From NCBI RefSeq assembly GCF_048403405.1, contig NZ_CP183129.1: 64,000 bases of DNA. The stretch is one strand, 5' to 3'. Below are positions 831 through 63,426 of the stretch, in pieces. The position numbers and the translations under genes are program-made. The notes under the pieces were generated by a model. It saw nothing but the letters and a program-made list of their open reading frames with translations. It was not told the DNA's origin and did not search any database. How positions within the stretch are numbered: the stretch's first letter is position 1; every line of letters begins with the position of its first letter. The stretch is from Escherichia coli (GTDB lineage: Bacteria; Pseudomonadota; Gammaproteobacteria; Enterobacterales; Enterobacteriaceae).

Positions 831-872
831 GAAATCATTAGTTTCACTTCGCAATTTTGCCATTCCATTGCC

Positions 873-889
873 GTTGATAATAGGTTTAT
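873..889 (+). promoter_or_regulatory. candidate PhoP box (direct repeat GTTGAT-N5-GTTTAT) upstream of pmrD
   Basis: Hexamer direct repeat with 5-nt spacer about 50 bp upstream of the pmrD ATG; imperfect match to the (T/G)GTTTA-N5-(T/G)GTTTA consensus. Confidence 0.3.
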
Positions 890-939: not shown

Positions 940-1206
940 ATGGAATGGCTGGTTAAAAAGTCATGCTGTGATAAACAAGATAACAGACATGTACTTAAGC
1001 TTTGTGATGCTGGTGGCACGATAAAAATGATCGCCGAAGTGAAGAGTGACTTCGCCGTGAAAGTGGGGGATTTACTCTCGCCTTTGCAGAATGCGCTTTA
1101 TTGTATTAATCGTGAAAAGCTGCATACGGTGAAAGTCCTCTCGGCAAGCAGTTATAGCCCCGATGAGTGGGAACGGCAGTGTAAAGTGGCAGGGAAAACT
1201 CAGTAA
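940..1206 (+). CDS. pmrD: PmrD connector protein (about 88 aa)
   Basis: ORF 910..1206 contains [10 protein letters not shown]... from its 11th codon, matching the remembered PmrD N-terminus; lies between menE and arnF. Confidence 0.7.
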
Positions 1207-1586
1207 CGTTGTTTTGTCGTGGGCAGGAAAATCAGCATCAACCCGCTCATAATACAGGCTACTCCCAGTAGTGCTTTCAGCGAAAAAGTCCCTTCCCAGC
1301 CGGGAAGTACCATTGAAGCAATCCATACCAGCACATAACTCATACTGAGCAAGGCATAGGCTTTGCTTAGTGCAAGTTTATGTAGTGTTTTATACCAACA
1401 AAAAACGGAAAGCAGATAACCCAGCAGCCCGAGTAACAGTATCCGGGCATCCAGGCCAAAAGCTAACAACGCCGCGATAAAATCCCATAAGTGCGTCATC
1501 GGCGGCAGATGACTCGCCGCAAAACCCAGGCTTAATTGCGCAGCGGAGGCGATAATGACGCTGAATAATCCCCACATCAGGCCCAT
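1200..1586 (-). CDS. arnF: undecaprenyl-phosphate-L-Ara4N flippase subunit ArnF
   Basis: Track ORF 1200..1868 (222 aa) fuses two genes; the 3' 128 codons starting [10 protein letters not shown] form a small four-helix membrane protein. Confidence 0.7.
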
Positions 1587-1921
1587 TACACGGTACTCCC
1601 GAGGATCACAATGCCACCAATAATGAACGCCACCCCACACCAGTGACGCGGCGATACCGGTTCGTGCCACAGTTTTACTGCAGCCAGCGTCACCCAGACA
1701 AAATTCAGACTTAACATCGGGTAGGCAATGCCTACCGGTACGTTCTGCAAGACCAGCAGCCAGAGCACCATGGCAAGACCAAGACAAGCCAGCGCCAGTC
1801 CCAGCCACAGCACGATATGTTTGCGCCGTTTGTTTATCGCCACAAAGCAGGTTGCCTGTTTCTGACACAACTGCCCGGCAACGCTAAGCAAGCTGGCAAA
1901 GACTAATGTTAGCCAGATCAT
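1586..1921 (-). CDS. arnE: undecaprenyl-phosphate-L-Ara4N flippase subunit ArnE
   Basis: 111-aa hydrophobic SMR-like ORF immediately downstream of arnT with overlapping stop/start. Confidence 0.75.
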
Positions 1922-3570
1922 TTGGGACGATACTGAATCAGCACCAGACGCTCCTGACGATCGATGGCATCTGCGGGCGGAATGGCGAGACTGTTGATAT
2001 CTTCATCGCGGTCAACCGAAAGCACGAGTGTAATAATCCCCTCCTGACGATGTTGATTAAGCCAGTTTGCGAACTCATCACCGCTGACAAATCTCCCTTT
2101 CGCATCCGGATAATTAAGGCCGTATTTCAACTCACCTGTCTGGCGATACATGATGATGTCATCGCGTTGCAGGCTCCATGCCAGACCTGCGGCAACACCG
2201 ACGCTATCAGTAAGAATATAGCGGCTTGGCTGAAGTGATTCTTGTGTCATCTCGACAAAAAATTGCGGATGTTTTCCTTCCATGACTCTGTCAGGAATTG
2301 AAAATCCTACCAGCAACGCCAGCCCCAGCGGGCAAAGCGCGGCAAAAGACCAGGTCTTTTCGACGTTTGTTAAGGTGTACCAGCCGAAAAATGCCCATAG
2401 CGAAAAAATCGACCAGGCACAAAAGACTTTATAGCTCTCGAAGGTTTGCCACACTGGCGTGTTCATTGGTCCCCAGGGGGAGACCACAAATGTGGCAATA
2501 ATGCCAGTGACACCAAAAGTGATGTTAATCCAGCCATTAATCCGCAGCGCCAGAGGATTATTTTTTGCTGCCAGCAAAGCGTAATGCGCCATCAGCATTG
2601 CCAGAGGTGCAAAGCAGGAAAGAATATAGGTGGGCAATTTGCCTTTAGCGACGGAGAAAAACAGCAGCGGCATTATCGTCCAGCTCAACAAATAGACGGT
2701 TGCGGAATGCTTGCGGTTTTTCCAGCCTGCGTACAGTGCTCCGGGGAGTAATCCCAGCCACGGCAGGCTACCGGCAATGATGACCGGCAAGTAGTACCAG
2801 AACGGAGCTCTATGCTGAGCATCATCCATTGCAAAGCGTTGAATATGCTCAACCCAGAAAAAATAGTGCCAGAAGTCAGGCTCCCGCTGCGCTATCGCCA
2901 GTCCCCAGGGGAGAACCGTCAGTACGCAACTGATAACCGCCAGCCAGCCGTAAATAAAGAGATCTTTCCAGCGTTTTTGCGTTGCAACCCATGGAAGCAC
3001 GCTTAATACCGGCACGGCAAGGGCGAGAAAACCTTTGGTCATCACCCCCATGCCGCAGGTGATTCCCAGCAGTAAAAATCCTGCGCTTTTGCCTTTCCAC
3101 GTCTGTGCCTGCATTGCCAGCCAGAAGCTGCACATTCCCGCCACCAGCCAGAAGGCAATAAACGGATCGAGCACGGCATAAGTGCCGATGGCATAGACAA
3201 TGAACAATGAGAGGTAAATCACTGCGGCGAGTAATGCCAGACGTTTATCGCGCCATAAGCGCAGAGTAAACCAGGCCACCAGCGCGGCAGTTAACAGGGT
3301 CGCAAAGATAACGCCTGCCCGCACACCAAAGTTATTTGCGCCAAATAGCCATTGCCCAATGCTGTTAATCCAGTATCCGGCAATGGGTTTTTCGAAATAA
3401 CGTAGCCCTAACAGATGGGGCACAATCCAGTCGCCGGATGCCAGCATTTCCCGACTGATTTCCGCATAACGCGTTTCATCGGGTTGCCAGAGCAGACGCG
3501 TGCTGATCGGTAACAGGTAATAGCAGGCAATAAACGCGAAGAGGCCGATAAGGTAACGTACCGATTTCAT
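1918..3570 (-). CDS. arnT: 4-amino-4-deoxy-L-arabinose transferase (lipid A modification)
   Basis: 550-aa polytopic membrane glycosyltransferase; overlaps arnD and arnE junctions. Confidence 0.9.
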
Positions 3571-4460
3571 CAGCGACTACCCGCAATTTGTTGGCAACCC
3601 AGCCAGCCTTCACGTCCGGCAATATTTCCGCGAACAACTTGCCCGAGCGGTAACGTCCCTGATAACAGTTCGCTTAAAGGGCAAAATGTCACGCCTTCCT
3701 GGGCTGCGCGTTTCAGGAGATCCACAAAATTATGCTGATAAGCGCAGCCTTCAACTTCTGCATGAATGGTATAAACCGGCGTGCCTTTATCTCGCAGGAT
3801 GCGGTTGAGTAACCAACCGTTAAAATCTTCTGCTTTCACATCCCGACCAATCACTTCATCCCAGGTGGGTAAGGTCACCGGAATTTGCGCAGTGCCAGGG
3901 TTTCCTGATTCGAGCAGTGGCCGAAACGGCATGGCCCCACGACAATCGCTGTTGTAGCGCAAATGGAACGCTTCTTTTGCTTCGATCACCTGCTGGTCGG
4001 CACGCCAGCCCGCAGCGGCAGAACAGGTTACCGGTTGACCTATGATCTCTTCCAGGGTGCGAAGGCCGCGTGCAATATCGTCGACCAATGTTTGCCGATC
4101 CCAGTTACCGCTATGGGCTTGCCAGGCATGGTGATCCCAGGCGTGCAGGCCGACTTCGTGATGTTTAGCTGCTTCACGAATGATATCGGCATTGGCATGA
4201 CCAATCTCTTTACCCGGCCAGGCCGTACCTGCCAGTAAAATATCCCAGCCATAAAGCGATGCCGCGTTTGAGCGCAGCATCTTCCACAAAAACTGTGGCT
4301 TCACCAGTCGCCAGAGATGGCGGCCCATATTGTCCGGGCCGACGCTGAAAAAAATGCTGGCCTGAATATTATGCTTACTCAAGATTTCCAGCAGACGCGG
4401 CACGCCTTCACGGGTGCCACGAAAGGTATCGACATCAATGCGTAAGCCGACTTTGGTCAT
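3570..4460 (-). CDS. arnD: 4-deoxy-4-formamido-L-arabinose-phosphoundecaprenol deformylase
   Basis: 296-aa polysaccharide-deacetylase-like ORF; operon position. Confidence 0.9.
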
Positions 4461-6438
4461 GATGGTTTATCCGTAAGATCAACGGTGCGCAGGAAGAAAT
4501 CTAGCGTTTCGTCGATGGTTTCCTGCATATCAATTTTGGGTTCCCAGTCCAGGCAGCGGCGGGCATTGCGGATGCTCGGTTTACGATGCTCTACGTCCTG
4601 ATATCCTTTGCCGTAGTAGCTGCTACTTTCGACAACACGAAAGCCCGCAAACGGTGGGAAGTGATGGCGCAGCGGATGTTTTTCGAAGCTCGCCAGCAGC
4701 ATCTCGCCCAGTTCCTCAATGCTCGCTTCGTTCTCAGGATTGCCAATGTTGATAATTTCGCCGTCGCAGCGATTTCCCGCATTTTCGATAATGCGGTACA
4801 ACGCCTCGATACCATCCCGGATATCAGTAAAGCAGCGTTTTTGTTTTCCGCCATCAATTAGCTTAATTGGTGAACCTTCTACCAGATTGAGAATGAGTTG
4901 CGTAATAGCGCGGGAGCTGCCGATTCGTGCCGCATTAAGGTTATCCAGTCGTGGTCCCATCCAGTTAAACGGGCGGAAGAGGGTAAACTGTAAACCCTCT
5001 TTTTCGCCATAGGCCCAGATAACCCGATCAAGTAATTGTTTAGACACCGAATAAATCCAGCGTGGTTTATTCACCGGGCCGACGATTAAATTAGAATGAT
5101 CCTCATCGAAGTATTTATCGTTACACATCCCATAAACTTCTGAAGTCGACGGGAAGATGATTCGCTTACGGTACTTCACGCAGTAGCGGATAATGCGCAG
5201 ATTCTCTTCAAAATCGAGTTCAAATACGCGCAGCGGGTTGCGGGTATATTCAATCGGCGTGGCTATCGCCACCAGCGGCAACACGACATCACATTTTTTG
5301 ACGTGATACTCAATCCATTCGGAATGAATACTGATATCGCCTTCGACAAAGTGAAAATGCGGATGATTCAGAAAACGGCTTATCGCATCGCTGCCAATAT
5401 CCAGACCGTAAACTTCATAATGATCTTCGCGCAGCAGGCGTTCTGTCAGATGGTTGCCAATAAAGCCATTCACCCCGAGGATGAGTACCCGCGTACGGCG
5501 TCGGGCGGTGCAGGCAGGCTGGCTATTCAAGCGTGAACCTTGCACCAGGCCCAGCGTCTGCGCTAATTGCGAGCCCTGCATAGTAATGCCGTCGCCCGCC
5601 TGTCCGGTGACGATTTCCAGCGCGCCATCGCCACAGGCAATCAGCAGTGGCGCTACAGAAATCACCCTCCCCGGCTGTGCTTTGCTGGCATGAGGATGAA
5701 CACGCGACGACCAGACGGTGAATTTCTGATTGCCAACATAGCTGAAGGCACCCGGCCACGGATCGGCAACGGCACGCACCATGTTGTGCAGTACAGATGC
5801 CGGCTTATGCCATTCGAGGAAACTGTCATCCGGCGTTCTGCGACCAAAACAGGTGGCTTCGTTTTCGCGCTGGGCGATTTCCAGAATATTACCGTGTTTA
5901 ATGGCGGGTAATGTCTGTTCCAGTAGCTGGCGCGCGGCATGGCACAATTTATGATGCAGCGTAATAGCGATATCGTCTGGCGCAATGGCAATGCGCAGTT
6001 GCGCCACAATGGCCCCGGCATCGGCACGTTTCACCATTCGGTGCAATGTAACGCCAGTTTCCGTTTCACCGTTCACCAGCACCCAGTTCAGCGGCGCGCG
6101 ACCACGATATTTTGGTAACAGCGAACCATGCAGATTAAATGCACCTGCGGGAGCGAGCTGCAAAATTTCGTCGCAAATAAGATGGCGATAATAAAAAGAA
6201 AAAATCACATCAGGTGATAGTTGGGCAATGCGTTCCACCCACAGCGGATGATTAACGTTATCTGGCGCATAAACCGGAATGCCTCTTTCCGCCGCCAGAC
6301 GAGCTACCGAACCATAAAAGGCTTTTTCACCGGGATTATCAGTATGAGTAAAAATAGCGCTAATTTCGTAACCGGCAGCCAGCAGGGCTTCAATACCGAG
6401 GCATCCCATATCGTGGTAGGCAAAAACGACGGTTTTCA

Positions 6439-6439
<1 letters not shown>
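4457..6439 (-). CDS. arnA: bifunctional UDP-glucuronic acid decarboxylase / UDP-Ara4N formyltransferase
   Basis: 660-aa ORF with N-terminal formyltransferase-like and C-terminal NAD-dependent epimerase/dehydratase-like halves. Confidence 0.9.
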
Positions 6440-7410
<971 letters not shown>

Positions 7411-8568
7411 TTATTGTCCTGCGAGTTGCTGAAGGGCTGTGATGACGCGGTCGGCATCGGCGGTAGTCATATCCGGAAACAGCGGCAACGAACAGATGCG
7501 TTCGCTATTCCATTCGGTATTCGGTAACGACAGCGTGGGAAAACGCTCGCGATAATATTTTTGTGTGTGAGCGGCGCGGAAATGTAACCCGGTACCAATA
7601 CCTCTTTCTTTTAACGCTTCCATCAACGCATCGCGACTGATACCACAACGTTGTTCATCGACACGAATAATAAACAGATGCCAGGCGTGAACGTGCGGCC
7701 AGGCGGGAAGGCTTAATGGCTGAAAGGGGAGAGCTGCCAGTGCTTGCTGATATTGCTGGGCAATTTCGCGCCGACGGGTGTTGAGGTGCTCTAATTTTGC
7801 TAACTGTGTCAGGGCAATCGCGGCGTTAATATCGGTCAGATTGTACTTATAGCCCGGTGTTAAGACTTCAGCTTGCGGTGCACGGCCCCAGGTTTGTCTG
7901 TCATAGGCATCGACACCCAGACCGTGAAATTTCAGCATCCGTAGCTGGCGGGCAAGGTTTTCATTATCTGTAACAATCAGGCCACCTTCCGCACAGGTAA
8001 TATTTTTGATGGCGTGAAACGAAAAAATAGCGGTACCTTTTGTGCCAATATGTCGCCCTTTGTAATACGTACCGACGGCATGGGCAGCATCTTCGATAAC
8101 TGCGATGCCGTAACGTTCGCCAATGGCGCGAATGGCGTCAATATCTGCTGGCGCACCGGCATAATGCACCGGAATGATGGCTTTAGTGCGTGGCGTAATG
8201 GCTGACTCGATCGCTTCAGGCGTGACCATCAGCGTATCGTGGTCGACATCCACCATTACCGGCGTTGCACCCAACAAGGAAATCATATTGAGGGTTGAAA
8301 CCCAGGTCAGGGAAGGCGTAATCACTTCATCGCCCTTGCCAATTTCCAACGCCATTAGCGTGATATGCATTCCGGCGGTGGCTGAACTGACCGCGATGGC
8401 ATGCTGATTTCCCGTCAACTGGCAAAAGGCTTGTTCAAGCGCCTGATTCTTCGGACCGGTTGTGATCCAACCGGATTCGAGAACCTCTTTAACTGCAGCG
8501 AGTTCCTCCACGCCCATTGCTGGTCGCGAAAAAGGCAAAAATTCTGACATTGCTTTTCCTTCCGCCAT
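7411..8568 (-). CDS. arnB: UDP-4-amino-4-deoxy-L-arabinose--oxoglutarate aminotransferase
   Basis: DegT/ArnB-type PLP aminotransferase ORF (track 7411..8583); exact start uncertain. Confidence 0.85.
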
Positions 8569-8635
8569 TGAATACCTGTCCACTTATATTTGCTATAAAG
8601 AGTGTTGTGTATATTTTGCCATTTGGAGCAAAATT

Positions 8636-8665
8636 TTAAGGATAGAATATTAACTTAACCTTAAG
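8636..8665 (-). promoter_or_regulatory. candidate BasR/PmrA box (CTTAAG-GTTAAG-TTAAT) in arnB-ais divergent promoter
   Basis: Minus-strand reading cttaaggttaagttaat resembles YTTAAK direct repeats of PmrA boxes; lies upstream of arnB. Confidence 0.4.
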
Positions 8666-8857
8666 AAACTAATATTAGACGTAAATATTGAAATTTTTAT
8701 ATTTTTTCTTATTTAGGCTTTGCATTTGGCAAAATTTTGAGGCATTTTGCCGGCATCGCAGGATTTTTAATATTACACCAACTGCTAATTATCGCCAGAA
8801 ATGTCGCTCAATTTCACGGTAATTGTCTGGTTGCGCTTGTCTATAGGTGGAGTTTAC

Positions 8858-9460
8858 GTGTTAGCTTTTTGCCGCTCTTCGTTGAAGTCAAAAAAATATT
8901 TCATCATTTTACTGGCGCTCGCTGCAATTGCCGGACTGGGTACTCATGCCGCCTGGAGTAGCAATGGTTTGCCACGTATCGACAATAAAACGCTGGCCAG
9001 ACTGGCACAGCAGCATCCGGTTGTCGTTTTGTTTCGCCATGCTGAACGTTGCGATCGTTCAACCAATCAATGCTTGTCAGATAAAACAGGTATTACGGTC
9101 AAAGGTACCCAGGATGCCCGTGAACTGGGCAACGCTTTTAGTGCTGATATCCCTGATTTCGATCTTTATTCCAGTAATACCGTCCGGACCATTCAGTCGG
9201 CGACCTGGTTTTCATCGGGTAAAAAGCTGACGGTAGATAAACGACTTCTTCAGTGCGGTAATGAGATTTATAGTGCAATTAAGGACTTACAAAGCAAAGC
9301 GCCTGATAAAAATATCGTTATTTTCACCCATAATCATTGCCTGACATATATTGCTAAAGATAAGCGTGATGCGACATTTAAACCTGATTATCTGGATGGT
9401 TTAGTCATGCATGTGGAAAAAGGCAAAGTTTATCTGGATGGGGAATTCGTTAACCACTAA
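8858..9460 (+). CDS. ais: Ais, putative lipopolysaccharide core heptose(II)-phosphate phosphatase
   Basis: Histidine-phosphatase-like ORF with signal peptide; GTG start at 8858 preceded by AGGTGGAG; track ORF starts earlier at 8801. Confidence 0.7.
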
Positions 9461-37606: not shown

Positions 37607-40234
37607 ATGAGCGACCTTGCGAGAGAAATTACACCGGTCAACATTGAGGAAGAGCTGAAGAGCTCCTATCTGGATTATGCGATGTCGGTCATTGTTGGCC
37701 GTGCGCTGCCGGATGTCCGAGATGGCCTGAAGCCGGTACACCGTCGCGTACTTTACGCCATGAACGTACTAGGCAATGACTGGAACAAAGCCTATAAAAA
37801 ATCTGCCCGTGTCGTTGGTGACGTAATCGGTAAATACCATCCCCATGGTGACTTGGCGGTTTATAACACGATCGTCCGTATGGCGCAGCCATTCTCGCTG
37901 CGTTACATGCTGGTAGACGGTCAGGGTAACTTCGGTTCCATCGACGGCGACTCTGCGGCGGCAATGCGTTATACGGAAATCCGTCTGGCGAAAATTGCCC
38001 ATGAACTGATGGCCGATCTCGAAAAAGAGACGGTCGATTTCGTTGATAACTATGACGGCACGGAAAAAATTCCCGACGTCATGCCAACCAAAATTCCTAA
38101 CCTGCTGGTGAACGGTTCTTCCGGTATCGCCGTAGGTATGGCAACCAACATCCCGCCGCACAACCTGACGGAAGTCATCAACGGTTGTCTGGCGTATATC
38201 GATGATGAAGACATCAGCATTGAAGGGCTGATGGAACACATCCCGGGGCCAGATTTCCCGACGGCGGCAATCATCAACGGTCGTCGCGGTATTGAAGAAG
38301 CTTACCGTACCGGTCGCGGCAAGGTATATATCCGCGCCCGTGCTGAAGTGGAAGTTGACGCCAAAACCGGACGTGAAACCATTATCGTCCACGAAATTCC
38401 GTATCAGGTAAACAAAGCGCGCCTGATCGAGAAGATTGCGGAACTGGTAAAAGAAAAACGCGTGGAAGGCATCAGCGCGCTGCGTGACGAGTCTGACAAA
38501 GACGGTATGCGCATCGTGATTGAAGTGAAACGCGATGCGGTCGGTGAAGTTGTGCTCAACAACCTCTACTCCCAGACCCAGTTGCAGGTTTCTTTCGGTA
38601 TCAACATGGTGGCATTGCACCATGGTCAGCCGAAGATCATGAACCTGAAAGACATCATCGCGGCGTTTGTTCGTCACCGCCGTGAAGTGGTGACCCGTCG
38701 TACTATTTTCGAACTGCGTAAAGCTCGCGATCGTGCTCATATCCTTGAAGCATTAGCCGTGGCGCTGGCGAACATCGACCCGATCATCGAACTGATCCGT
38801 CATGCGCCGACGCCTGCAGAAGCGAAAACTGCGCTGGTTGCTAATCCGTGGCAGCTGGGCAACGTTGCCGCCATGCTCGAACGTGCTGGCGACGATGCTG
38901 CGCGTCCGGAATGGCTGGAGCCAGAGTTCGGCGTGCGCGATGGTCTGTACTATCTGACCGAACAGCAAGCCCAGGCAATTCTGGATCTGCGTCTGCAGAA
39001 ACTGACCGGTCTTGAGCACGAAAAACTGCTCGACGAATACAAAGAGCTGCTGGATCAGATTGCGGAACTGCTGCGTATTCTGGGTAGCGCCGATCGTCTG
39101 ATGGAAGTGATCCGTGAAGAGCTGGAGCTGGTTCGTGAACAGTTCGGCGACAAACGTCGTACTGAAATCACTGCCAACAGCGCCGACATCAACCTGGAAG
39201 ATCTAATCACACAGGAAGATGTGGTGGTAACACTCTCTCACCAGGGCTACGTGAAGTATCAGCCGCTTTCTGAATACGAAGCGCAGCGTCGTGGCGGGAA
39301 AGGTAAATCTGCCGCACGTATTAAAGAAGAAGACTTTATCGACCGACTGCTGGTGGCGAACACCCACGACCATATTCTGTGCTTCTCCAGCCGTGGTCGC
39401 GTCTATTCGATGAAAGTCTATCAGTTGCCGGAAGCCACTCGTGGCGCGCGCGGTCGTCCGATCGTCAACCTGCTGCCGCTGGAGCAGGACGAACGTATCA
39501 CTGCCATCCTGCCGGTGACCGAGTTTGAAGAGGGCGTGAAAGTCTTCATGGCGACCGCTAACGGTACCGTGAAGAAAACTGTCCTCACCGAGTTCAACCG
39601 TCTGCGTACCGCCGGTAAAGTGGCGATCAAACTTGTTGAAGGCGATGAGCTGATCGGCGTTGACCTGACCAGCGGCGAAGACGAAGTAATGCTGTTCTCC
39701 GCCGAAGGTAAAGTGGTGCGCTTTAAAGAGTCTTCTGTCCGTGCGATGGGCTGCAACACCACCGGTGTTCGCGGTATTCGTTTAGGCGAAGGCGATAAAG
39801 TCGTCTCTCTGATCGTGCCTCGTGGCGATGGCGCAATCCTCACCGCAACGCAGAACGGTTATGGTAAACGTACCGCAGTGGCGGAATACCCGACTAAGTC
39901 GCGTGCGACGAAAGGGGTTATCTCCATCAAGGTTACCGAACGTAACGGTTTAGTGGTTGGCGCGGTGCAGGTAGATGACTGCGACCAGATCATGATGATC
40001 ACCGATGCCGGTACGCTGGTACGTACTCGCGTTTCGGAAATCAGCATCGTGGGCCGTAACACCCAGGGCGTGATCCTCATCCGTACTGCGGAAGATGAAA
40101 ACGTAGTGGGTCTGCAACGTGTTGCTGAACCGGTTGACGAGGAAGATCTGGATACCATCGACGGCAGTGCCGCGGAAGGGGACGATGAAATCGCTCCGGA
40201 AGTGGACGTTGACGACGAGCCAGAAGAAGAATAA
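37607..40234 (+). CDS. gyrA: DNA gyrase subunit A; QRDR carries Leu83 and Asn87
   Basis: 875-aa ORF; codons 83 (TTG, 37853-37855) and 87 (AAC, 37865-37867) inside ...[17 protein letters not shown]... Confidence 0.95.
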
Positions 40235-40382: not shown

Positions 40383-47230
<6,848 letters not shown>

Positions 47231-50949: not shown

Positions 50950-52272
50950 TCAGAACAGCGTTAAACCAATGACGAAAATGACGCCGGAGAAGAGCAGGGC
51001 AGTGATGCAATAGCCCATGATGTCGCGGACACCGAGTCCGGCGATTGCCAGTGCTGGCAGCGCCCAGAATGGTTGTGCCATGTTCATCCATTGCTCGCCG
51101 TAGGCGATCGCCATTACCGATTTACCGAGATCAGCGCCCAGCGCCTGGGCTGCGGGTATCACGAAAGGTCCCTGAATAACCCAGTGACCGCCGCCAGACG
51201 GAACGGCGAAGTTAATCAGTGCAGAACTAAAAAAGGTCATTACCGGGAAGGTGTCTTTGTTCGCAACATTGATGAAGAATTCGGTAATGAGTCCGCCCAG
51301 ACCGGAGTGCTCCATCATCAGTTGGATCCCAGCGTAGAAGGGGAATTGCACCAAAATACCGGCAGTACTGCGTGCTGCCGCGCTGATAGCACGCATATAA
51401 GCCATTGGCGTTTTATGTAGCAGCAGACCCGCAATCATAAACATCAGGTTGACGGTATTGATGGTGATGTTGAAGCCATGTTCGCTGAAGTACATCGCAA
51501 GGTAAGCGATACCGAGTGCGCCGATGATCAACGTCAGAATGCGGCTTTCTTCCAGTCGCTCGGATGGTGGGGCATCTTTCGGTAGCTGCTTTTGGAAATC
51601 AGCCTCTTCCATGAGTAGTTTCGGATCGATACTCACCACGTCAGACGGTTTTGGCATCATCATGCGGGTGATAAATGGCATCACCACAATCAACGCCACA
51701 GTGATGAAAATATTAAAACCACTGAACAGAGTATCGCCCACCGGGATCAGCCCGGCGATATGCTCAACCGGGTTGCCCGGTGTTGCAGCCAACAGAGGCA
51801 TTGAGCCAGAGAAACCGCCACCCCAGGTGAGAAAACCAATGTAGGCGCAGGCAATGAGCAACGGATAATCAGAACCGGGTACTCGGCGGGCGACTTCACG
51901 GGCAAACATTGCGCCGACAACCAAACCAAATCCCCAGTTGATGACACAAGCGACTGAACCGAAGAAAGTAACCAGCATGACGCCCTGTACGGGCGTCTTT
52001 GCGGCGGAGGCGGCAGTACGCAGCAAACTTTTTACCGGAGCAGAGCTGGCAAGGGCATGACCGGTAACGATGATAAGCGCCATCTGCATACCAAACGCCA
52101 GCAAGTTCCAGAAACCGTCACCCCACATTTTCACCATGCTGATCGGCGTTTGTGGTGTTAACCAAAGCGCGATCACGAAAGTTAGCAATGTCAGCAACAT
52201 GGCAAAGATCAGTGGATCGGGAAGCCACCGGCTGACAAAACGCGTCATAAAACGCGATATGCGACCAATCAT
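50950..52272 (-). CDS. atoE: short-chain fatty acid transporter
   Basis: 440-aa polytopic membrane ORF between atoA and atoB. Confidence 0.85.
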   Translation of the reverse strand: MIGRISRFMTRFVSRWLPDPLIFAMLLTLLTFVIALWLTPQTPISMVKMWGDGFWNLLAFGMQMALIIVTGHALASSAPVKSLLRTAASAAKTPVQGVMLVTFFGSVACVINWGFGLVVGAMFAREVARRVPGSDYPLLIACAYIGFLTWGGGFSGSMPLLAATPGNPVEHIAGLIPVGDTLFSGFNIFITVALIVVMPFITRMMMPKPSDVVSIDPKLLMEEADFQKQLPKDAPPSERLEESRILTLIIGALGIAYLAMYFSEHGFNITINTVNLMFMIAGLLLHKTPMAYMRAISAAARSTAGILVQFPFYAGIQLMMEHSGLGGLITEFFINVANKDTFPVMTFFSSALINFAVPSGGGHWVIQGPFVIPAAQALGADLGKSVMAIAYGEQWMNMAQPFWALPALAIAGLGVRDIMGYCITALLFSGVIFVIGLTLF

Positions 52273-57151: not shown

Positions 57152-60001
57152 TTGAAATACCTTGCTTCTTTTCGTACAACCCTGAAAGCCTCGCGCTACA
57201 TGTTCAGAGCATTGGCGTTAGTGCTCTGGCTGTTGATTGCTTTTTCATCCGTTTTTTACATCGTTAATGCGTTACATCAGCGAGAATCGGAAATTCGTCA
57301 GGAATTTAATCTGAGTTCCGATCAGGCTCAGCGCTTTATTCAACGTACCTCTGATGTGATGAAAGAGCTGAAGTACATCGCTGAAAATCGCTTATCGGCA
57401 GAAAACGGTGTGCTTTCCCCGCGTGGACGAGAAACGCAGGCGGATGTGCCTGCGTTTGAACCGCTGTTTGCCGACTCCGATTGTTCCGCAATGAGTAACA
57501 CCTGGCGAGGCTCTCTGGAGTCATTGGCGTGGTTTATGCGCTACTGGCGCGATAATTTCTCTGCGGCTTACGATCTCAACCGGGTATTTTTAATCGGCAG
57601 CGATAACCTCTGCATGGCCAATTTCGGTCTGCGTGATATGCCAGTGGAACGCGATACCGCGTTGAAAGCGTTGCATGAACGCATTAATAAATATCGAAAT
57701 GCACCACAAGATGATAGTGGCAGTAACCTCTACTGGATCAGCGAAGGTCCGCGCCCTGGCGTCGGGTATTTTTACGCGTTGACGCCAGTTTATCTGGCGA
57801 ACCGGTTGCAGGCGCTTTTGGGTGTCGAGCAGACTATCCGGATGGAGAATTTTTTCTTACCTGGTACGTTGCCGATGGGGGTTACCATTCTTGATGAAAA
57901 TGGTCATACCCTGATTTCGCTTACCGGACCAGAAAGTAAAATTAAGGGCGATCCTCGCTGGATGCAGGAACGCTCCTGGTTTGGCTATACGGAAGGGTTC
58001 CGGGAGCTGGTGCTGAAGAAAAATCTGCCACCCTCATCGCTAAGCATCGTGTATTCGGTGCCGGTTGATAAGGTGCTGGAACGCATTCGCATGTTGATCC
58101 TTAACGCAATTTTGCTGAATGTGCTTGCCGGAGCTGCATTGTTTACTCTCGCGCGGATGTACGAGCGACGTATTTTCATTCCGGCGGAAAGCGACGCCCT
58201 GCGACTGGAAGAACATGAGCAGTTTAATCGCAAGATTGTCGCCTCCGCGCCAGTGGGTATCTGCATTTTGCGTACCGCTGATGGCGTCAATATTTTAAGT
58301 AACGAACTGGCGCATACCTATCTCAATATGCTTACGCATGAGGATCGCCAACGGCTGACACAAATTATCTGTGGGCAGCAGGTCAATTTTGTTGATGTCC
58401 TGACCAGCAACAATACCAATCTGCAAATCAGCTTCGTCCATTCGCGCTATCGTAATGAAAACGTGGCCATTTGTGTGCTGGTGGATGTTTCTTCGCGCGT
58501 GAAGATGGAAGAGTCGTTGCAGGAGATGGCACAAGCAGCGGAACAGGCGAGCCAGTCAAAATCGATGTTCCTTGCCACCGTCAGTCATGAGCTGCGAACG
58601 CCGCTGTATGGCATTATCGGTAACCTGGATCTGTTGCAAACCAAAGAGTTACCGAAAGGCGTCGATCGTCTGGTGACGGCAATGAACAACTCTTCCAGCC
58701 TGTTGTTGAAAATTATCAGCGATATTCTCGATTTCTCGAAGATTGAATCGGAACAGTTGAAGATCGAACCGCGTGAGTTTTCACCGCGTGAAGTGATGAA
58801 CCACATCACCGCCAACTATTTACCGCTGGTGGTACGCAAGCAGTTAGGCTTGTACTGCTTTATTGAACCGGATGTGCCAGTGGCCTTAAATGGCGACCCG
58901 ATGCGTTTACAGCAGGTCATCTCCAACCTGTTGAGTAACGCCATAAAATTCACCGATACCGGCTGTATAGTTTTGCATGTTCGCACTGATGGCGATTATC
59001 TCTCTATCCGTGTTCGCGATACCGGCGTGGGGATTCCGGCGAAAGAAGTGGTGCGCTTGTTTGATCCCTTCTTCCAGGTCGGAACGGGCGTACAGCGTAA
59101 CTTCCAGGGGACCGGTCTGGGTCTGGCGATTTGTGAAAAACTGATCAGCATGATGGACGGCGATATCTCGGTAGATTCAGAACCGGGAATGGGTAGCCAG
59201 TTTACCGTGCGTATTCCGTTGTACGGCGCTCAGTACCCGCAGAAAAAAGGCGTGGAAGGGTTGAGTGGTAAACGCTGCTGGCTGGCGGTCCGCAATGCGT
59301 CGCTCTGTCAGTTCCTGGAAACCAGTTTGCAGCGCAGCGGCATCGTCGTTACAACATACGAAGGGCAGGAACCGACTCCCGAAGATGTGTTAATTACTGA
59401 CGAGGTAGTGAGTAAAAAATGGCAGGGTAGAGCGGTAGTGACCTTCTGTCGTCGCCATATTGGTATTCCGCTGGAGAAAGCGCCAGGGGAGTGGGTACAC
59501 AGTGTGGCTGCCCCGCATGAGCTACCGGCATTGTTGGCGCGTATTTATTTGATCGAGATGGAGAGCGACGATCCTGCTAACGCTCTGCCGTTAACGGACA
59601 AAGCGGTCAGCGATAACGACGATATGATGATTCTGGTCGTGGATGATCATCCGATTAACCGGCGTCTGCTGGCAGATCAGTTGGGATCGTTGGGCTATCA
59701 ATGTAAAACCGCGAATGATGGCGTCGATGCGCTTAATGTACTTAGCAAGAATCATATTGATATCGTGCTTAGCGACGTCAACATGCCAAATATGGATGGT
59801 TACCGCTTGACGCAACGCATTCGTCAGTTGGGACTGACGTTGCCGGTAATCGGAGTAACTGCTAATGCGTTGGCTGAAGAGAAGCAGCGGTGTCTGGAGT
59901 CTGGTATGGACAGCTGCCTGTCGAAGCCGGTAACGCTGGATGTGATAAAACAGACGCTAACGGTATATGCCGAGAGGGTCAGGAAATCGCGGGATTCGTA
60001 G
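57152..60001 (+). CDS. rcsC: hybrid sensor histidine kinase RcsC
   Basis: 949-aa ORF: H-box SHELRTPLYGI, HATPase domain, C-terminal receiver (DDHPINRRLL...D...K). Confidence 0.9.
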   Translation: MKYLASFRTTLKASRYMFRALALVLWLLIAFSSVFYIVNALHQRESEIRQEFNLSSDQAQRFIQRTSDVMKELKYIAENRLSAENGVLSPRGRETQADVPAFEPLFADSDCSAMSNTWRGSLESLAWFMRYWRDNFSAAYDLNRVFLIGSDNLCMANFGLRDMPVERDTALKALHERINKYRNAPQDDSGSNLYWISEGPRPGVGYFYALTPVYLANRLQALLGVEQTIRMENFFLPGTLPMGVTILDENGHTLISLTGPESKIKGDPRWMQERSWFGYTEGFRELVLKKNLPPSSLSIVYSVPVDKVLERIRMLILNAILLNVLAGAALFTLARMYERRIFIPAESDALRLEEHEQFNRKIVASAPVGICILRTADGVNILSNELAHTYLNMLTHEDRQRLTQIICGQQVNFVDVLTSNNTNLQISFVHSRYRNENVAICVLVDVSSRVKMEESLQEMAQAAEQASQSKSMFLATVSHELRTPLYGIIGNLDLLQTKELPKGVDRLVTAMNNSSSLLLKIISDILDFSKIESEQLKIEPREFSPREVMNHITANYLPLVVRKQLGLYCFIEPDVPVALNGDPMRLQQVISNLLSNAIKFTDTGCIVLHVRTDGDYLSIRVRDTGVGIPAKEVVRLFDPFFQVGTGVQRNFQGTGLGLAICEKLISMMDGDISVDSEPGMGSQFTVRIPLYGAQYPQKKGVEGLSGKRCWLAVRNASLCQFLETSLQRSGIVVTTYEGQEPTPEDVLITDEVVSKKWQGRAVVTFCRRHIGIPLEKAPGEWVHSVAAPHELPALLARIYLIEMESDDPANALPLTDKAVSDNDDMMILVVDDHPINRRLLADQLGSLGYQCKTANDGVDALNVLSKNHIDIVLSDVNMPNMDGYRLTQRIRQLGLTLPVIGVTANALAEEKQRCLESGMDSCLSKPVTLDVIKQTLTVYAERVRKSRDS

Positions 60002-60002
60002 G

Positions 60003-60086
60003 GCGGATAAGGCGTTTACGCCGCATCTGGCATTCAGTGCAAATGCCAGATGCGACGCTGACGCGTCTTATCTGGCCTACAGATGA
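60003..60086. repeat. REP element(s) between convergent rcsC and rcsB
   Basis: ggcggataaggcgtttacgccgcatctggca ... gccagatgcgacgctgacgcgtcttatctggcctac. Confidence 0.6.
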
Positions 60087-60737
60087 TTAGTCTTTATCTG
60101 CCGGACTTAAGGTCACAGAAGAGAGATAATTCAGCAGAGCAATATCGTTCTCGACACCCAGCTTCATCATCGCAGATTTCTTCTGGCTACTGATGGTTTT
60201 AATACTGCGGTTCAGCTTTTTAGCGATCTCGGTCACCAGGAAGCCTTCCGCAAACAGGCGCAGAACTTCACTCTCTTTTGGCGAGAGACGCTTGTCACCG
60301 TAACCACCAGCACTGATTTTTTCCAACAGGCGAGAAACGCTTTCCGGGGTAAATTTCTTCCCTTTCTGCAGCGCGGCGAGAGCTTTCGGCAGATCGGTCG
60401 GTGCACCTTGTTTCAGCACGATCCCTTCGATATCCAGATCCAATACCGCACTAAGAATCGCCGGGTTGTTGTTCATGGTCAGAACGATGATCGACAGGCT
60501 TGGGAAATGGCGCTTGATGTACTTGATTAAGGTAATGCCATCGCCGTACTTATCGCCAGGCATGGAGAGATCGGTAATCAACACATGCGCATCCAGTTTC
60601 GGCAGGTTGTTGATCAGTGCTGTAGAGTCTTCAAATTCGCCGACAACATTCACCCACTCAATTTGCTCAAGTGATTTGCGAATACCGAACAAGACTATCG
60701 GATGGTCATCGGCAATAATTACGTTCATATTGTTCAT
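60087..60737 (-). CDS. rcsB: response regulator RcsB (LuxR/FixJ family)
   Basis: 216-aa ORF from MNNMNVIIADDHPIVLFGIRKSL with C-terminal LuxR-type HTH. Confidence 0.9.
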   Translation of the reverse strand: MNNMNVIIADDHPIVLFGIRKSLEQIEWVNVVGEFEDSTALINNLPKLDAHVLITDLSMPGDKYGDGITLIKYIKRHFPSLSIIVLTMNNNPAILSAVLDLDIEGIVLKQGAPTDLPKALAALQKGKKFTPESVSRLLEKISAGGYGDKRLSPKESEVLRLFAEGFLVTEIAKKLNRSIKTISSQKKSAMMKLGVENDIALLNYLSSVTLSPADKD

Positions 60738-60753
60738 GTAATAGGCTACCTTG

Positions 60754-63426
60754 CTACAGCAAGCTCTTGACATAACTGTCAATGTCGCTGATGTATTTTT
60801 CTATTCCTGGAACATCCTTTTCACGAATCAGATGTTCCAGCGTTTCACATAACTGCTTGCCGGGTACCAGATTTAGCATGGCAAACACGCCTTTAAGACG
60901 ATGAGCCGTTTGGGCTAACGCAGCAAAGTCACTGGTTGCTGCTTCAGTATACAGCCTCTTAACATCATCCGGTACTGTGTCTACAAAGAGCGCATAATAG
61001 CCGCTGGCATGGAGTTGCGCATTTTCATCTCCGCCCAGAGGCGATTCTGTCACCTCTTCCTGCGCCAGTTGCACTTCAATTAATTGTAAGACCGCTTCCT
61101 GCATAGCGTTGCTCATATTGAAGTTGACGCACAATTGACCAGGCCCAATTTCCCGTACGCCAGACTCATCATCGCTTAAAAGCAAGCCAGAGGCAGTAAG
61201 ATTAGACGGATTATCCGTTAAAAAGATATCATAATCTTGACTAATTAATCTTTCATCGGGTGTGATACAGGTTGCACCCCAATTTTCTAACTGGCGAGTG
61301 ACAATATTCCGAATTTCTGCCGAAGTAACATCCACCATTACGCAGACATCATCCAGTAAACGCTCTTCTTCCTCTTCAACTTCCGGGTCAGCTGCGAGCA
61401 TTTTGATATGCACAGAGTAGCGTGTACCAAGCCCATCCCGCGTTTTAATGTTTAAATGACCGCCCAGTTTACGTGCCAGTTGATCGCTCAGCCAGAATGC
61501 CAGCGGGTCCGCCTTGCCATAGCGATCGTTTTGGGTCTGGTTGATAAACGGGAAGTGCAAATTATCCATTTCATGAATGCTTACGCCTTCTCCGGTGTCC
61601 AGAATGCGGAACGTCAGGCGGTCTTCGGAGGACTCATCCTGATCAACCTCAAGGGTGATTTTTCCCAATTGCGTTGAGGTCACGGCATATTGCATCAGTA
61701 GCAGCAAAATGCGTCGTAAGGCATCGCGATCGCCGCGGCGCATATCGTGTGCTTTCAGATGATTGTTAATCAGCAGTTGCAGACCTTTACGCTTGATGGC
61801 AGGCAACACTGAAGGCACAACTTCATCAATTAAATCCTGCACGGAGAACAGCACCGTCTCACTTTTCCAGCTATCATCCGCAAGCATGTTCGCTAACTGT
61901 ATTTCATCGACCAGCCGCACCAGCACATCTGCCTGATTCGCCAGTTGTTTGCTTTCCGGGGCGTTGAGTTTAGCCGCGCTCTCCGCCAGGGACTGTGCAG
62001 GTTCTTTCAGCGCATCGCCAATGTTTTTCATAAAGGTCATCCGCCCCTGCTGGTTTTTCTCATACAGACGCTGCGCCTGCTTGAGTTTCTTGTTTACCAG
62101 CACTTCGCGATCCTGATCGCGAATAATGAAAATTTGTGTGCGCGGCGCGACCTGGCTGCGGAACATGCGGATCTCATACAGCTCGTTATTGATCGTCGCC
62201 TGAATAATCCCCTGATGCTGTTCCGCCATGGTGGTGATGTTTTGCAGATTCAAATGCGGCAGCAAATGATCGGCAATTTTGTTACTTATGACAGTGCGGT
62301 TCGATTCCTGATCGTGAACCAGCAGGCCAAGCGGCAGCAGTGAGACTATCTCTTCATTGATTGCACGTAAAATGCGCAATTCGTTATTGACCGCCGTGCT
62401 GGGGACGTTTTCTGTACTGCGGCTGGAGAAATGGCGGAATGTGGTATAGCCAAATAACGCCAGCGCCAGCAAACCGATATTCAGCAGCAGTGGCAGCAGA
62501 ATGTTTTGCAACGTATCCAGCAGTAAGGTGCCATAAGGAACCTGCCAGACCAGGCGCATATCGGTAGAGTTGAGTGCCGAGGAGATTTCAATCTTCGTAC
62601 TGTTAAAGTGGATACTGACGCTATCCGTCCCTTCTTTCTCATTATCATTGTTTCCCGTTGCCGTCGCGTCTGGCTCAAGGCGGAAACTGTCCAGCGGCAT
62701 GCCCGGTGGGATCAAATCATTAATCGGCAGATCAAAAGCCACGACCGTTGCCAGATGTCCCGGCTGGTTAAAGGTAGTACGCAAGGTAAAGTAATGACCG
62801 TTCTGCCAGGCTAGGCGGCGCATGTTAGAAAAGCTTTCGCGTTCATCGAGGGCGTTGGCCTGTTGCAACATCTCTGCACGACGTGAATCAACAATGTCGC
62901 TGACGGTCGATTCTTTAAATCCGGAGGTGAGATCTTTAAGGGGCAGGGTTGAGATCAGCACCAGGCTGTTATCCTGACCATTCAGGTAATACATCGACCA
63001 CGGTACATTTTCTGCGCCCCACAATGTATCCAGATAAGTGGACATCCGTTGAGTCATCTCAAGCGTTGAGTTGTCGTGAGAGCCAAAGATTAACGCTTCC
63101 GTTTTGCGGCGCGGTTTTTCCAGATAGTAGACATCCTGTTTCAGGCGCGTCTCTTGTAAACCTTCGCCGGAGGAGGGGGAGGTCGTCGCGGCAATGTTGT
63201 CGTAGATCTGCCAGGTCACGTAACGCCAGGTATCGACGCGCTTTTGGATTGCGTGGGTAATGTCGACAATCTGGTAACTTTTATCTTTCAGCCAGGCGTT
63301 AACGGCGCTTTGTACCATTACTCCCATCGTCACCAGTAACACAATGATCAACAGTAAAAAGAAGCGGGTAATGCTCCCCGGTAGGAGTGAAAAGCGGGTC
63401 GTGGCCGTTGTCTCTTTCTGACGCAT
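60754..63426 (-). CDS. rcsD: phosphotransfer intermediate RcsD
   Basis: 890-aa ORF with N-terminal TM/periplasmic region and C-terminal HPt domain; upstream of rcsB. Confidence 0.9.
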   Translation of the reverse strand: MRQKETTATTRFSLLPGSITRFFLLLIIVLLVTMGVMVQSAVNAWLKDKSYQIVDITHAIQKRVDTWRYVTWQIYDNIAATTSPSSGEGLQETRLKQDVYYLEKPRRKTEALIFGSHDNSTLEMTQRMSTYLDTLWGAENVPWSMYYLNGQDNSLVLISTLPLKDLTSGFKESTVSDIVDSRRAEMLQQANALDERESFSNMRRLAWQNGHYFTLRTTFNQPGHLATVVAFDLPINDLIPPGMPLDSFRLEPDATATGNNDNEKEGTDSVSIHFNSTKIEISSALNSTDMRLVWQVPYGTLLLDTLQNILLPLLLNIGLLALALFGYTTFRHFSSRSTENVPSTAVNNELRILRAINEEIVSLLPLGLLVHDQESNRTVISNKIADHLLPHLNLQNITTMAEQHQGIIQATINNELYEIRMFRSQVAPRTQIFIIRDQDREVLVNKKLKQAQRLYEKNQQGRMTFMKNIGDALKEPAQSLAESAAKLNAPESKQLANQADVLVRLVDEIQLANMLADDSWKSETVLFSVQDLIDEVVPSVLPAIKRKGLQLLINNHLKAHDMRRGDRDALRRILLLLMQYAVTSTQLGKITLEVDQDESSEDRLTFRILDTGEGVSIHEMDNLHFPFINQTQNDRYGKADPLAFWLSDQLARKLGGHLNIKTRDGLGTRYSVHIKMLAADPEVEEEEERLLDDVCVMVDVTSAEIRNIVTRQLENWGATCITPDERLISQDYDIFLTDNPSNLTASGLLLSDDESGVREIGPGQLCVNFNMSNAMQEAVLQLIEVQLAQEEVTESPLGGDENAQLHASGYYALFVDTVPDDVKRLYTEAATSDFAALAQTAHRLKGVFAMLNLVPGKQLCETLEHLIREKDVPGIEKYISDIDSYVKSLL

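Follow-up and report, generated by a model that had tools for sequence, protein, structure and literature searches.

The response regulator PmrA, which corresponds to BasR of Escherichia coli, activates promoters in which a pmra-box overlaps or replaces the -35 element (PMC10570014). A PmrA dimer occupies the two hexamers of the box head-to-tail, reads their TAA bases, bends the DNA and contacts region 4 of sigma70 (PMC4660055, PMC3973317, PMC10570014). The box of the Klebsiella pneumoniae pbgP promoter, CTTAAT-ATTAT-CCTAAG, is represented in a crystal structure (4S05) and in a cryo-EM activation complex, and PmrA footprints exist for the orthologous sites of both Salmonella and Klebsiella (including PMC2565834). 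A comparable arrangement is found in the pho-box promoters controlled by PhoB, in which direct repeats in tandem, spaced by one turn of the helix, stand in for the -35 element approximately 10 bp upstream of the -10 element and activation likewise proceeds via contact with sigma70 region 4 (PMC10570014), although the cores are different (CTGTCAT as opposed to TTAA), as are the regulator and the signal. In E. coli, activation of BasS/BasR is known from the literature to induce arnBCADTEF and eptA. Direct work on E. coli BasR, with footprints and SELEX, was reportedly done by Hagiwara in 2004 and Ogasawara in 2012; a literature search for BasR SELEX together with arnB returned no match.

Here we describe the arnB-ais intergenic region in a 64-kb stretch of an E. 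coli genome (contig NZ_CP183129.1), hereafter the window, which is oriented in reverse relative to the K-12 chromosome. A 451-bp query around the gap matches 5418 of 5426 complete E. coli genomes, where the adjacent genes are annotated as arnB and ais, and the identities of arnB, ais, arnC-F and pmrD in the window come from 100% matches to annotated E. coli genomes. The relevant genes are the following.

1200..8550, minus strand: arnBCADTEF operon, seven full-length genes with 97.9-99.1% nucleotide identity to K-12
940..1206, plus strand: pmrD, the PhoPQ-BasRS connector, located at the operon's distal 3' end, convergent with arnF
8858..9460, plus strand: ais/pmrG, LPS core heptose(II)-phosphate phosphatase, with a GTG start, divergent from arnB

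Compared with K-12, the arn proteins carry 0-9 substitutions, and PmrD differs by N11D, M20K and A27T. The window shows two indels and not a single substitution against E. coli MS 69-1 across 64 kb and, given this near-identity, comes from a very close relative of MS 69-1, as well as of TUM14771, GN02461 and MB31. The MS 69-1 annotation over the window comprises men, pmrD, arn, ais, rhm, glp, nrd, yfaL, gyrA, ato and rcsCBD genes. According to this annotation, which applies to the window but for the two indels, eptA-basRS, ugd and phoPQ all lie outside the 64 kb. The sequence-only reading of this DNA had held that pmrD makes the polymyxin-resistance regulon complete in the window; pmrD is indeed present, but with eptA-basRS, ugd and phoPQ absent, completeness does not hold. 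The rcsC, rcsB and rcsD genes (57152-63426) encode an envelope-stress phosphorelay that is also responsive to polymyxin damage and is outside the BasR regulon.

Several other features of the window merit mention in their own right. In yfaS, the alpha-2-macroglobulin gene (42610-47230, plus strand), a run of seven A residues at about 43450-43456 is found where MS 69-1 has six, and splits the 1504-aa gene into two ORFs; the cause is a genuine frameshift or, alternatively, an error in homopolymer sequencing that affects one of the two assemblies. In atoE (50950-52272, minus strand), 10 bp at 51299-51308, AGACCGGAGT, are present in the window and missing from MS 69-1, so that the gene is intact in the former and annotated as frameshifted in the latter. 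An IS1-family element resides at 25482-26179, between genes for a LysR-family regulator (24632-25480) and an MFS transporter (26439-27629).

The gap between arnB and ais is markedly AT-rich, with a GC content of 0.23-0.24 over 8600-8749 compared to approximately 0.5 in the flanking genes. A PmrA/BasR-box-like repeat on the arnB side of this gap was proposed by the sequence-only reading, and the quoted string, cttaaggttaagttaat, does occur there, as one copy at 8665..8649 on the minus strand. The box, CTTAAGGTTAAGTTAAT, lies at this position, on the arnB-sense strand. To place it relative to transcription, the primary starts listed for K-12 in a dRNA-seq table (arnB, 2365854 on the plus strand; ais, 2365723 on the minus strand; PMC12987492) were transferred to the window through the indel-free intergenic alignment. 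The arnB promoter then has the following elements.

8649..8665, minus strand: BasR/PmrA box CTTAAG-GTTAA-GTTAAT, assigned from sequence, matrix, conservation, position relative to the transcription start and a published 60-mer
8665..8660, minus strand: half-site 1 of the box, CTTAAG, at -41..-36 of the arnB start
8654..8649, minus strand: half-site 2 of the box, GTTAAT, at -30..-25 of the arnB start
8633..8638, minus strand: arnB -10 element TAAAAT, at -14 to -9, 10 nt downstream of the box
8624, minus strand: arnB transcription start (A), from K-12 2365854 (+), dRNA-seq (PMC12987492)
8551..8623, minus strand: arnB 5' leader, 74 nt when +1 at 8624 is counted
8563..8557, minus strand: Shine-Dalgarno sequence GGAAGGA of arnB, with the AAGGA block kept before the MSEF/MSDF ATG

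The box thus spans -41 to -25 of the arnB start on the sense strand, in place of a -35 element. It agrees with the pmra-box pattern, a direct repeat of YTTAAK with a 5-nt separation, except for one mismatch: half-site 2 opens with a G where the pattern has Y. This mismatch is the norm in E. coli and is shared by E. albertii. The same sequence can also be parsed as two TTAAnnTT units that are 11 bp apart.

The consensus itself is too loose to identify such sites: with at most one mismatch, YTTAAK-N5-YTTAAK yields 2 hits in the 64 kb, compared with 3.3 expected, so that there is no enrichment, a result that would suit a random, non-functional occurrence of the motif in AT-rich DNA. The scan with this pattern was therefore dropped as non-significant, and a position-weight matrix trained on the arnB-upstream boxes of other species, with E. 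coli left out, was used instead. By this matrix, the box scores 26.3 bits and ranks first on both strands of the 64 kb, far above the next unrelated site (13.5 bits). The significance of the box accordingly derives from the matrix score, the position relative to the mapped start and the phylogenetic conservation, not from the loose pattern.

For the assessment of conservation, the arnB loci of 80 other species were collected, and 400 nt upstream of the conserved MS(E/D)FLPFSRP start were scanned. A sense-strand box with at most one mismatch is located 80-260 nt upstream of ArnB in 59 of 78 Enterobacterales species, as against 2.3 +/- 1.4 species in shuffled sequences and 16 on the antisense strand. 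Nearly all the remaining species have a box with two mismatches at the orthologous position, for example, E. albertii (CTTAAGGTTAAGTTAAC) and the Citrobacter freundii group (CTTAAGGATAAATTAAC). When the intergenic regions of Escherichia, Salmonella, Citrobacter and Phytobacter are aligned, most of the sequence diverges and the box stands out as the best-conserved block. The Klebsiella box recovered by the scan, CTTAATATTATCCTAAG, is identical to the footprinted and crystallised site. An unusual arrangement was observed in Citrobacter amalonaticus S646, where 310 nt, as against about 100, separate the box from the ArnB ATG owing to an insert of about 215 bp in the arnB leader that is GC-rich and contains palindromic stretches, perhaps of a REP/MITE-like nature.

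Taken together with the exact geometry relative to the mapped start and the orthology to experimentally footprinted sites, the matrix score and the conservation in 59 of 78 species, against 2.3 expected, effectively refute the chance-match explanation, to which we assign a practically negligible probability. We consider it highly probable that BasR (PmrA) binds the E. coli arnBCADTEF promoter at 8649-8665 of the minus strand, in agreement with the earlier assignment of the repeat to BasR control of the lipid A L-Ara4N operon. The sequence, position, conservation and population invariance of this site are demonstrated here; for its dependence on BasR, the mode of binding and the transcription starts, we draw on the literature, which concerns other strains and species. 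The box is an already known, textbook site in its normal species-wide form and has been described for the arn promoter of E. coli, within a 60-mer exactly matching 8627-8686 of the window (PMC10729948).

The -10 element TAAAAT was called because the TAnnnT motif and its 10-nt spacing from the box are invariant in the alignment of Escherichia, Salmonella, Citrobacter and Phytobacter and because the mapped start fits. This start lies 9 nt past the last base of TAAAAT, a distance close to the upper limit of what is usual, and the exact hexamer could be offset by 1-2 nt. A generic sigma70 scan produced only two weak candidates, neither at the mapped starts, and such a scan is uninformative for activator-dependent promoters. 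The short repeats in the gap, denoted D1-D3 and I1, are AT-rich two-copy matches, among which D2 joins the arnB -10 region to the conserved block on the ais side.

The arnB start codon is annotated inconsistently, as an ATG at 8568 in K-12 and at 8550 (MSEF...) by RefSeq PGAP, and the longest ORF begins with a GTG at 8583, so that the sequence-only reading took the gap to be 8584-8857, from there to the ais GTG at 8858. The upstream ATG of the K-12 annotation is unconserved, its frame being lost or interrupted in Phytobacter and Citrobacter MGH106. Because the AAGGA Shine-Dalgarno block is conserved and the frame of the upstream ATG is not, arnB most likely starts with the ATG at 8550, in which case the non-coding gap is 8551-8857. 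The leader has no match in Rfam and no significant structure (fold z = -0.30) and, on these grounds, contains no riboswitch or other leader element.

Among the related systems, the K-12 arnB promoter (also denoted pbgP/pmrH/yfbE) is the same as that of the window in the box, the -10 element, the 25 bp upstream, the spacing, the context of the start site and the operon, with no indels; the window differs by five single-base changes, all outside the box. The Salmonella enterica pbgP (pmrH)-pmrG region shares the divergent layout, the 98-nt distance from the box to the ArnB ATG, the 10-nt gap to TAnnnT and a conserved ais-side block, TTTAAGGCATTTT. The Salmonella box is the perfect-consensus CTTAATGTTAATTTAAT, compared with CTTAAGGTTAAGTTAAT in E. 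coli, and the flanking sequences of the two are largely unalignable. The Klebsiella promoter similarly has sense-strand hexamers 5 nt apart that overlap the -35 region, and these are bound head-to-tail by the PmrA dimer. However, the Klebsiella box is about 154 nt from the ATG, there is no ais neighbour, and an additional PhoP box with a second promoter creates a feed-forward loop (PMC2565834), unlike the E. coli gap, which contains no PhoP-box-like sequence.

Specifically, a search of 8551-8857 for the PhoP box, (T/G)GTTTA-N5-(T/G)GTTTA, found no match with two or fewer mismatches, in agreement with PMC2565834, and the region thus lacks the signature of direct PhoP control of the arn promoter of the Klebsiella/Yersinia type. 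The lack of a PhoP box at arnB implies that PhoPQ acts on this operon in E. coli only through PmrD. A PhoP-box-like sequence does occur in front of pmrD and is consistent with the published PhoP activation of that gene.

872-888, plus strand: PhoP-box-like CGTTGATAATAGGTTTA, with 2 mismatches, about 50 nt before pmrD (940)

On the other side of the gap, the ais start faces away from that of arnB, and the two are back to back and 131 bp apart with the box between them, which bears out the divergent promoter arrangement originally proposed. The ais side contains a second conserved block.

8755, plus strand: ais transcription start (A), from K-12 2365723 (-) (PMC12987492)
8716..8752, plus strand: second conserved block, predicted ais (pmrG) core promoter, from conservation and the mapped start
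8720-8725, plus strand: ais -35-like element TTGCAT, with a 17-bp spacer to the -10-like element
8743-8748, plus strand: ais -10-like element CATTTT, with the ais start 6 nt downstream

The 8716-8752 block is conserved in Escherichia, Salmonella and the C. amalonaticus group. Its sequence is TTTGCATTTGGCAAAATTTTGAGGCATTTTGCC in the window and TTTAAGGCATTTTGCG in the relatives (loci L005, L006, L011, L012 and L017), with TTTGAGG in E. coli replacing TTTAAGG of the other genera. No matrix hit above 3 bits was detected over -41..-25 of ais, the region where a PmrA box would overlap the -35 element, and we interpret the block as a weak sigma70-type core promoter of ais, not as a PmrA box. Hence the "repeats" of the initial reading hold up for the arnB promoter and not for the ais side, which has no canonical box. 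A different -10 candidate for ais, at 8759-8764 (TAGGAT in K-12, CAGGAT in the window), was discarded because the published start puts +1 at 8755.

In the genomes compared, ais is a neighbour of arnB only in Escherichia, Salmonella and the C. amalonaticus group, and the GC content of its 3' half (0.35-0.41) is lower than that of the neighbouring genes. This restricted adjacency and the low GC content suggest that ais was inserted later, beside an older arn promoter.

Whether the single box also drives ais, from a centre at about -98 relative to the ais start, as part of a shared bidirectional control region, is a question on which the evidence points in both directions. The literature uses ais/pmrG as a PmrA-activated gene of E. 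coli and lists it as a known member of the regulon, and the ais and arnB starts are co-induced, together with ugd (PMC12987492). Moreover, no second canonical box is available near the ais -35 region, and the arnB box scores 14.7 bits on the ais strand thanks to its near-palindromic TTAA cores. However, a centre at -98 is unusually far upstream for an activator of the OmpR/PhoB type, the core promoter block of ais is conserved independently, and weak matrix hits of 5-8 bits at 8657-8693 and 8693-8715 could represent auxiliary sites. We therefore treat the shared box as a possible but less favoured explanation; the alternative is that ais responds through a separate, non-canonical BasR site or via an indirect effect. 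The broader proposition, that one BasR box controls both promoters, acting on arnB from the -35 position but on ais from about -98, and that common variants (T/C at arnB -6; ais -2 and +5) tune the basal expression of both transcripts in a lineage-specific manner, appears rather unlikely.

By analogy with PmrA of Salmonella and Klebsiella, phosphorylated BasR would accumulate in response to Fe3+, Zn2+ or mild acid, through BasS, and to low Mg2+, by way of PhoPQ and PmrD. A BasR dimer would then bind CTTAAG and GTTAAT, 11 bp apart, head-to-tail at -41..-25, replacing the -35 element, and, again by analogy, would bend the DNA and touch region 4 of sigma70 in the RNA polymerase. Transcription of arnB would start at 8624, and the products of the operon would attach L-Ara4N to lipid A, lowering polymyxin binding, with ais transcribed in the opposite direction, from 8755, by its own weak sigma70-type core promoter. 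In K-12, where the core promoter is identical, arnB-lacZ expression rises 31- to 72-fold in the basS A20D mutant and to a similar extent in basR G53V (PMC8151780). Given the identity of the core, we infer that the promoter of the window strain behaves like those of K-12 and EPEC.

A different model has been put forward in which the site is chiefly a target of QseB and PmrA/BasR acts as a blocker of the RNA polymerase (PMC10729948). Phosphorylated QseB shifts the 60-mer that is identical to window 8627-8686, and in the absence of both pmrA and qseC, arnB and eptA are over-expressed and the colistin MIC increases 16-fold (PMC10729948). However, this 60-mer includes the whole PmrA box and so cannot tell a QseB site apart from it. 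Both QseB and PmrA are regulators of the OmpR/PhoB family. Furthermore, the activation of arnB-lacZ by the constitutive basS/basR alleles (PMC8151780), the structural work that has PmrA activating from the -35 position (PMC10570014) and the preservation of the geometry between the box and the -10 element across many species all run counter to a blocking role, so that we rate this model as quite improbable. Cross-talk with QseB is best seen as an addition to activation by BasR and not as its replacement.

The genetic background of the window is fluoroquinolone-resistant, as the sequence-only reading had maintained, given that GyrA carries both S83L and D87N, the classical pair of mutations in the quinolone-resistance-determining region.

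37607-40234, plus strand: gyrA, with S83L (TTG) at 37853-37855 and D87N (AAC) at 37865-37867

The same reading had hinted that, in this background, regulatory mutations might affect colistin susceptibility. In E. coli, the chromosomal determinants of colistin resistance are generally basRS or mcr genes. A mutation in the promoter or elsewhere in the arn locus of the window that alters susceptibility could be sought among the five differences from K-12 in the gap, at 8630 (arnB -6), 8753 (ais -2), 8759 (ais +5), 8786 (ais +32) and 8805 (ais +51), or in the 8.6-kb arn locus as a whole, whose full allele is rare, being 100% identical in 6-7 genomes and at least 99% identical in 13. However, none of the five differences, which include no indels, falls in the box or the -10 element. 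The 60-bp core at 8631-8690, which consists of the -10 element, the box and 25 bp upstream, is shared without change by 5204 of 5414 complete E. coli genomes (96%), K-12 MG1655 and O157:H7 among them. The 60-mer with T at arnB -6 is found unchanged in 1675 of 5411 genomes (31%), and this T allele is also carried by a colistin-susceptible EPEC strain (MIC of 0.25 ug/ml), whose arn-promoter oligonucleotide is the same as window 8627-8686 (PMC10729948). An evenly spaced listing gives an estimate of some 700-830 genomes that share the whole 289-bp gap allele. In addition, no arn protein is truncated, the substitutions are the few indicated above, and basRS and mcr genes are outside the window.

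A susceptibility-altering mutation in this locus is thus extremely improbable. The sequence-only reading had itself considered that identity of the promoter to susceptible references, together with a wild-type colistin MIC, would speak against its hint, and for the promoter, with its identical core, this identity was found. The five differences from K-12 are common natural alleles, the rarity of the 8.6-kb allele is ordinary mosaicism that is uninformative with regard to resistance, and, by these comparisons, the window has the species-typical arn promoter allele and not a regulatory mutant.

A real variant of promoter structure does exist in the population. In E. coli EC5931 (NZ_CP104592.1), a blood isolate from China, an IS1 element at 3036-3800 of the extracted locus (L085) is inserted immediately at the upstream edge of the box, at the point equivalent to window 8665/8666, where it parts the box, the -10 element and arnB from the ais promoter; this insertion is absent from the window.

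The window hence represents a fluoroquinolone-resistant lineage in which the cis-regulatory region is intact and wild-type and the arn operon is full length, and, with promoter and operon intact, any colistin resistance in it would have to come from basRS, phoPQ/mgrB or mcr elsewhere. The map of the box, the -10 element and the starts of both arnB and ais, combined with a core that is identical in 96% of the genomes, provides a baseline for spotting real promoter variants.
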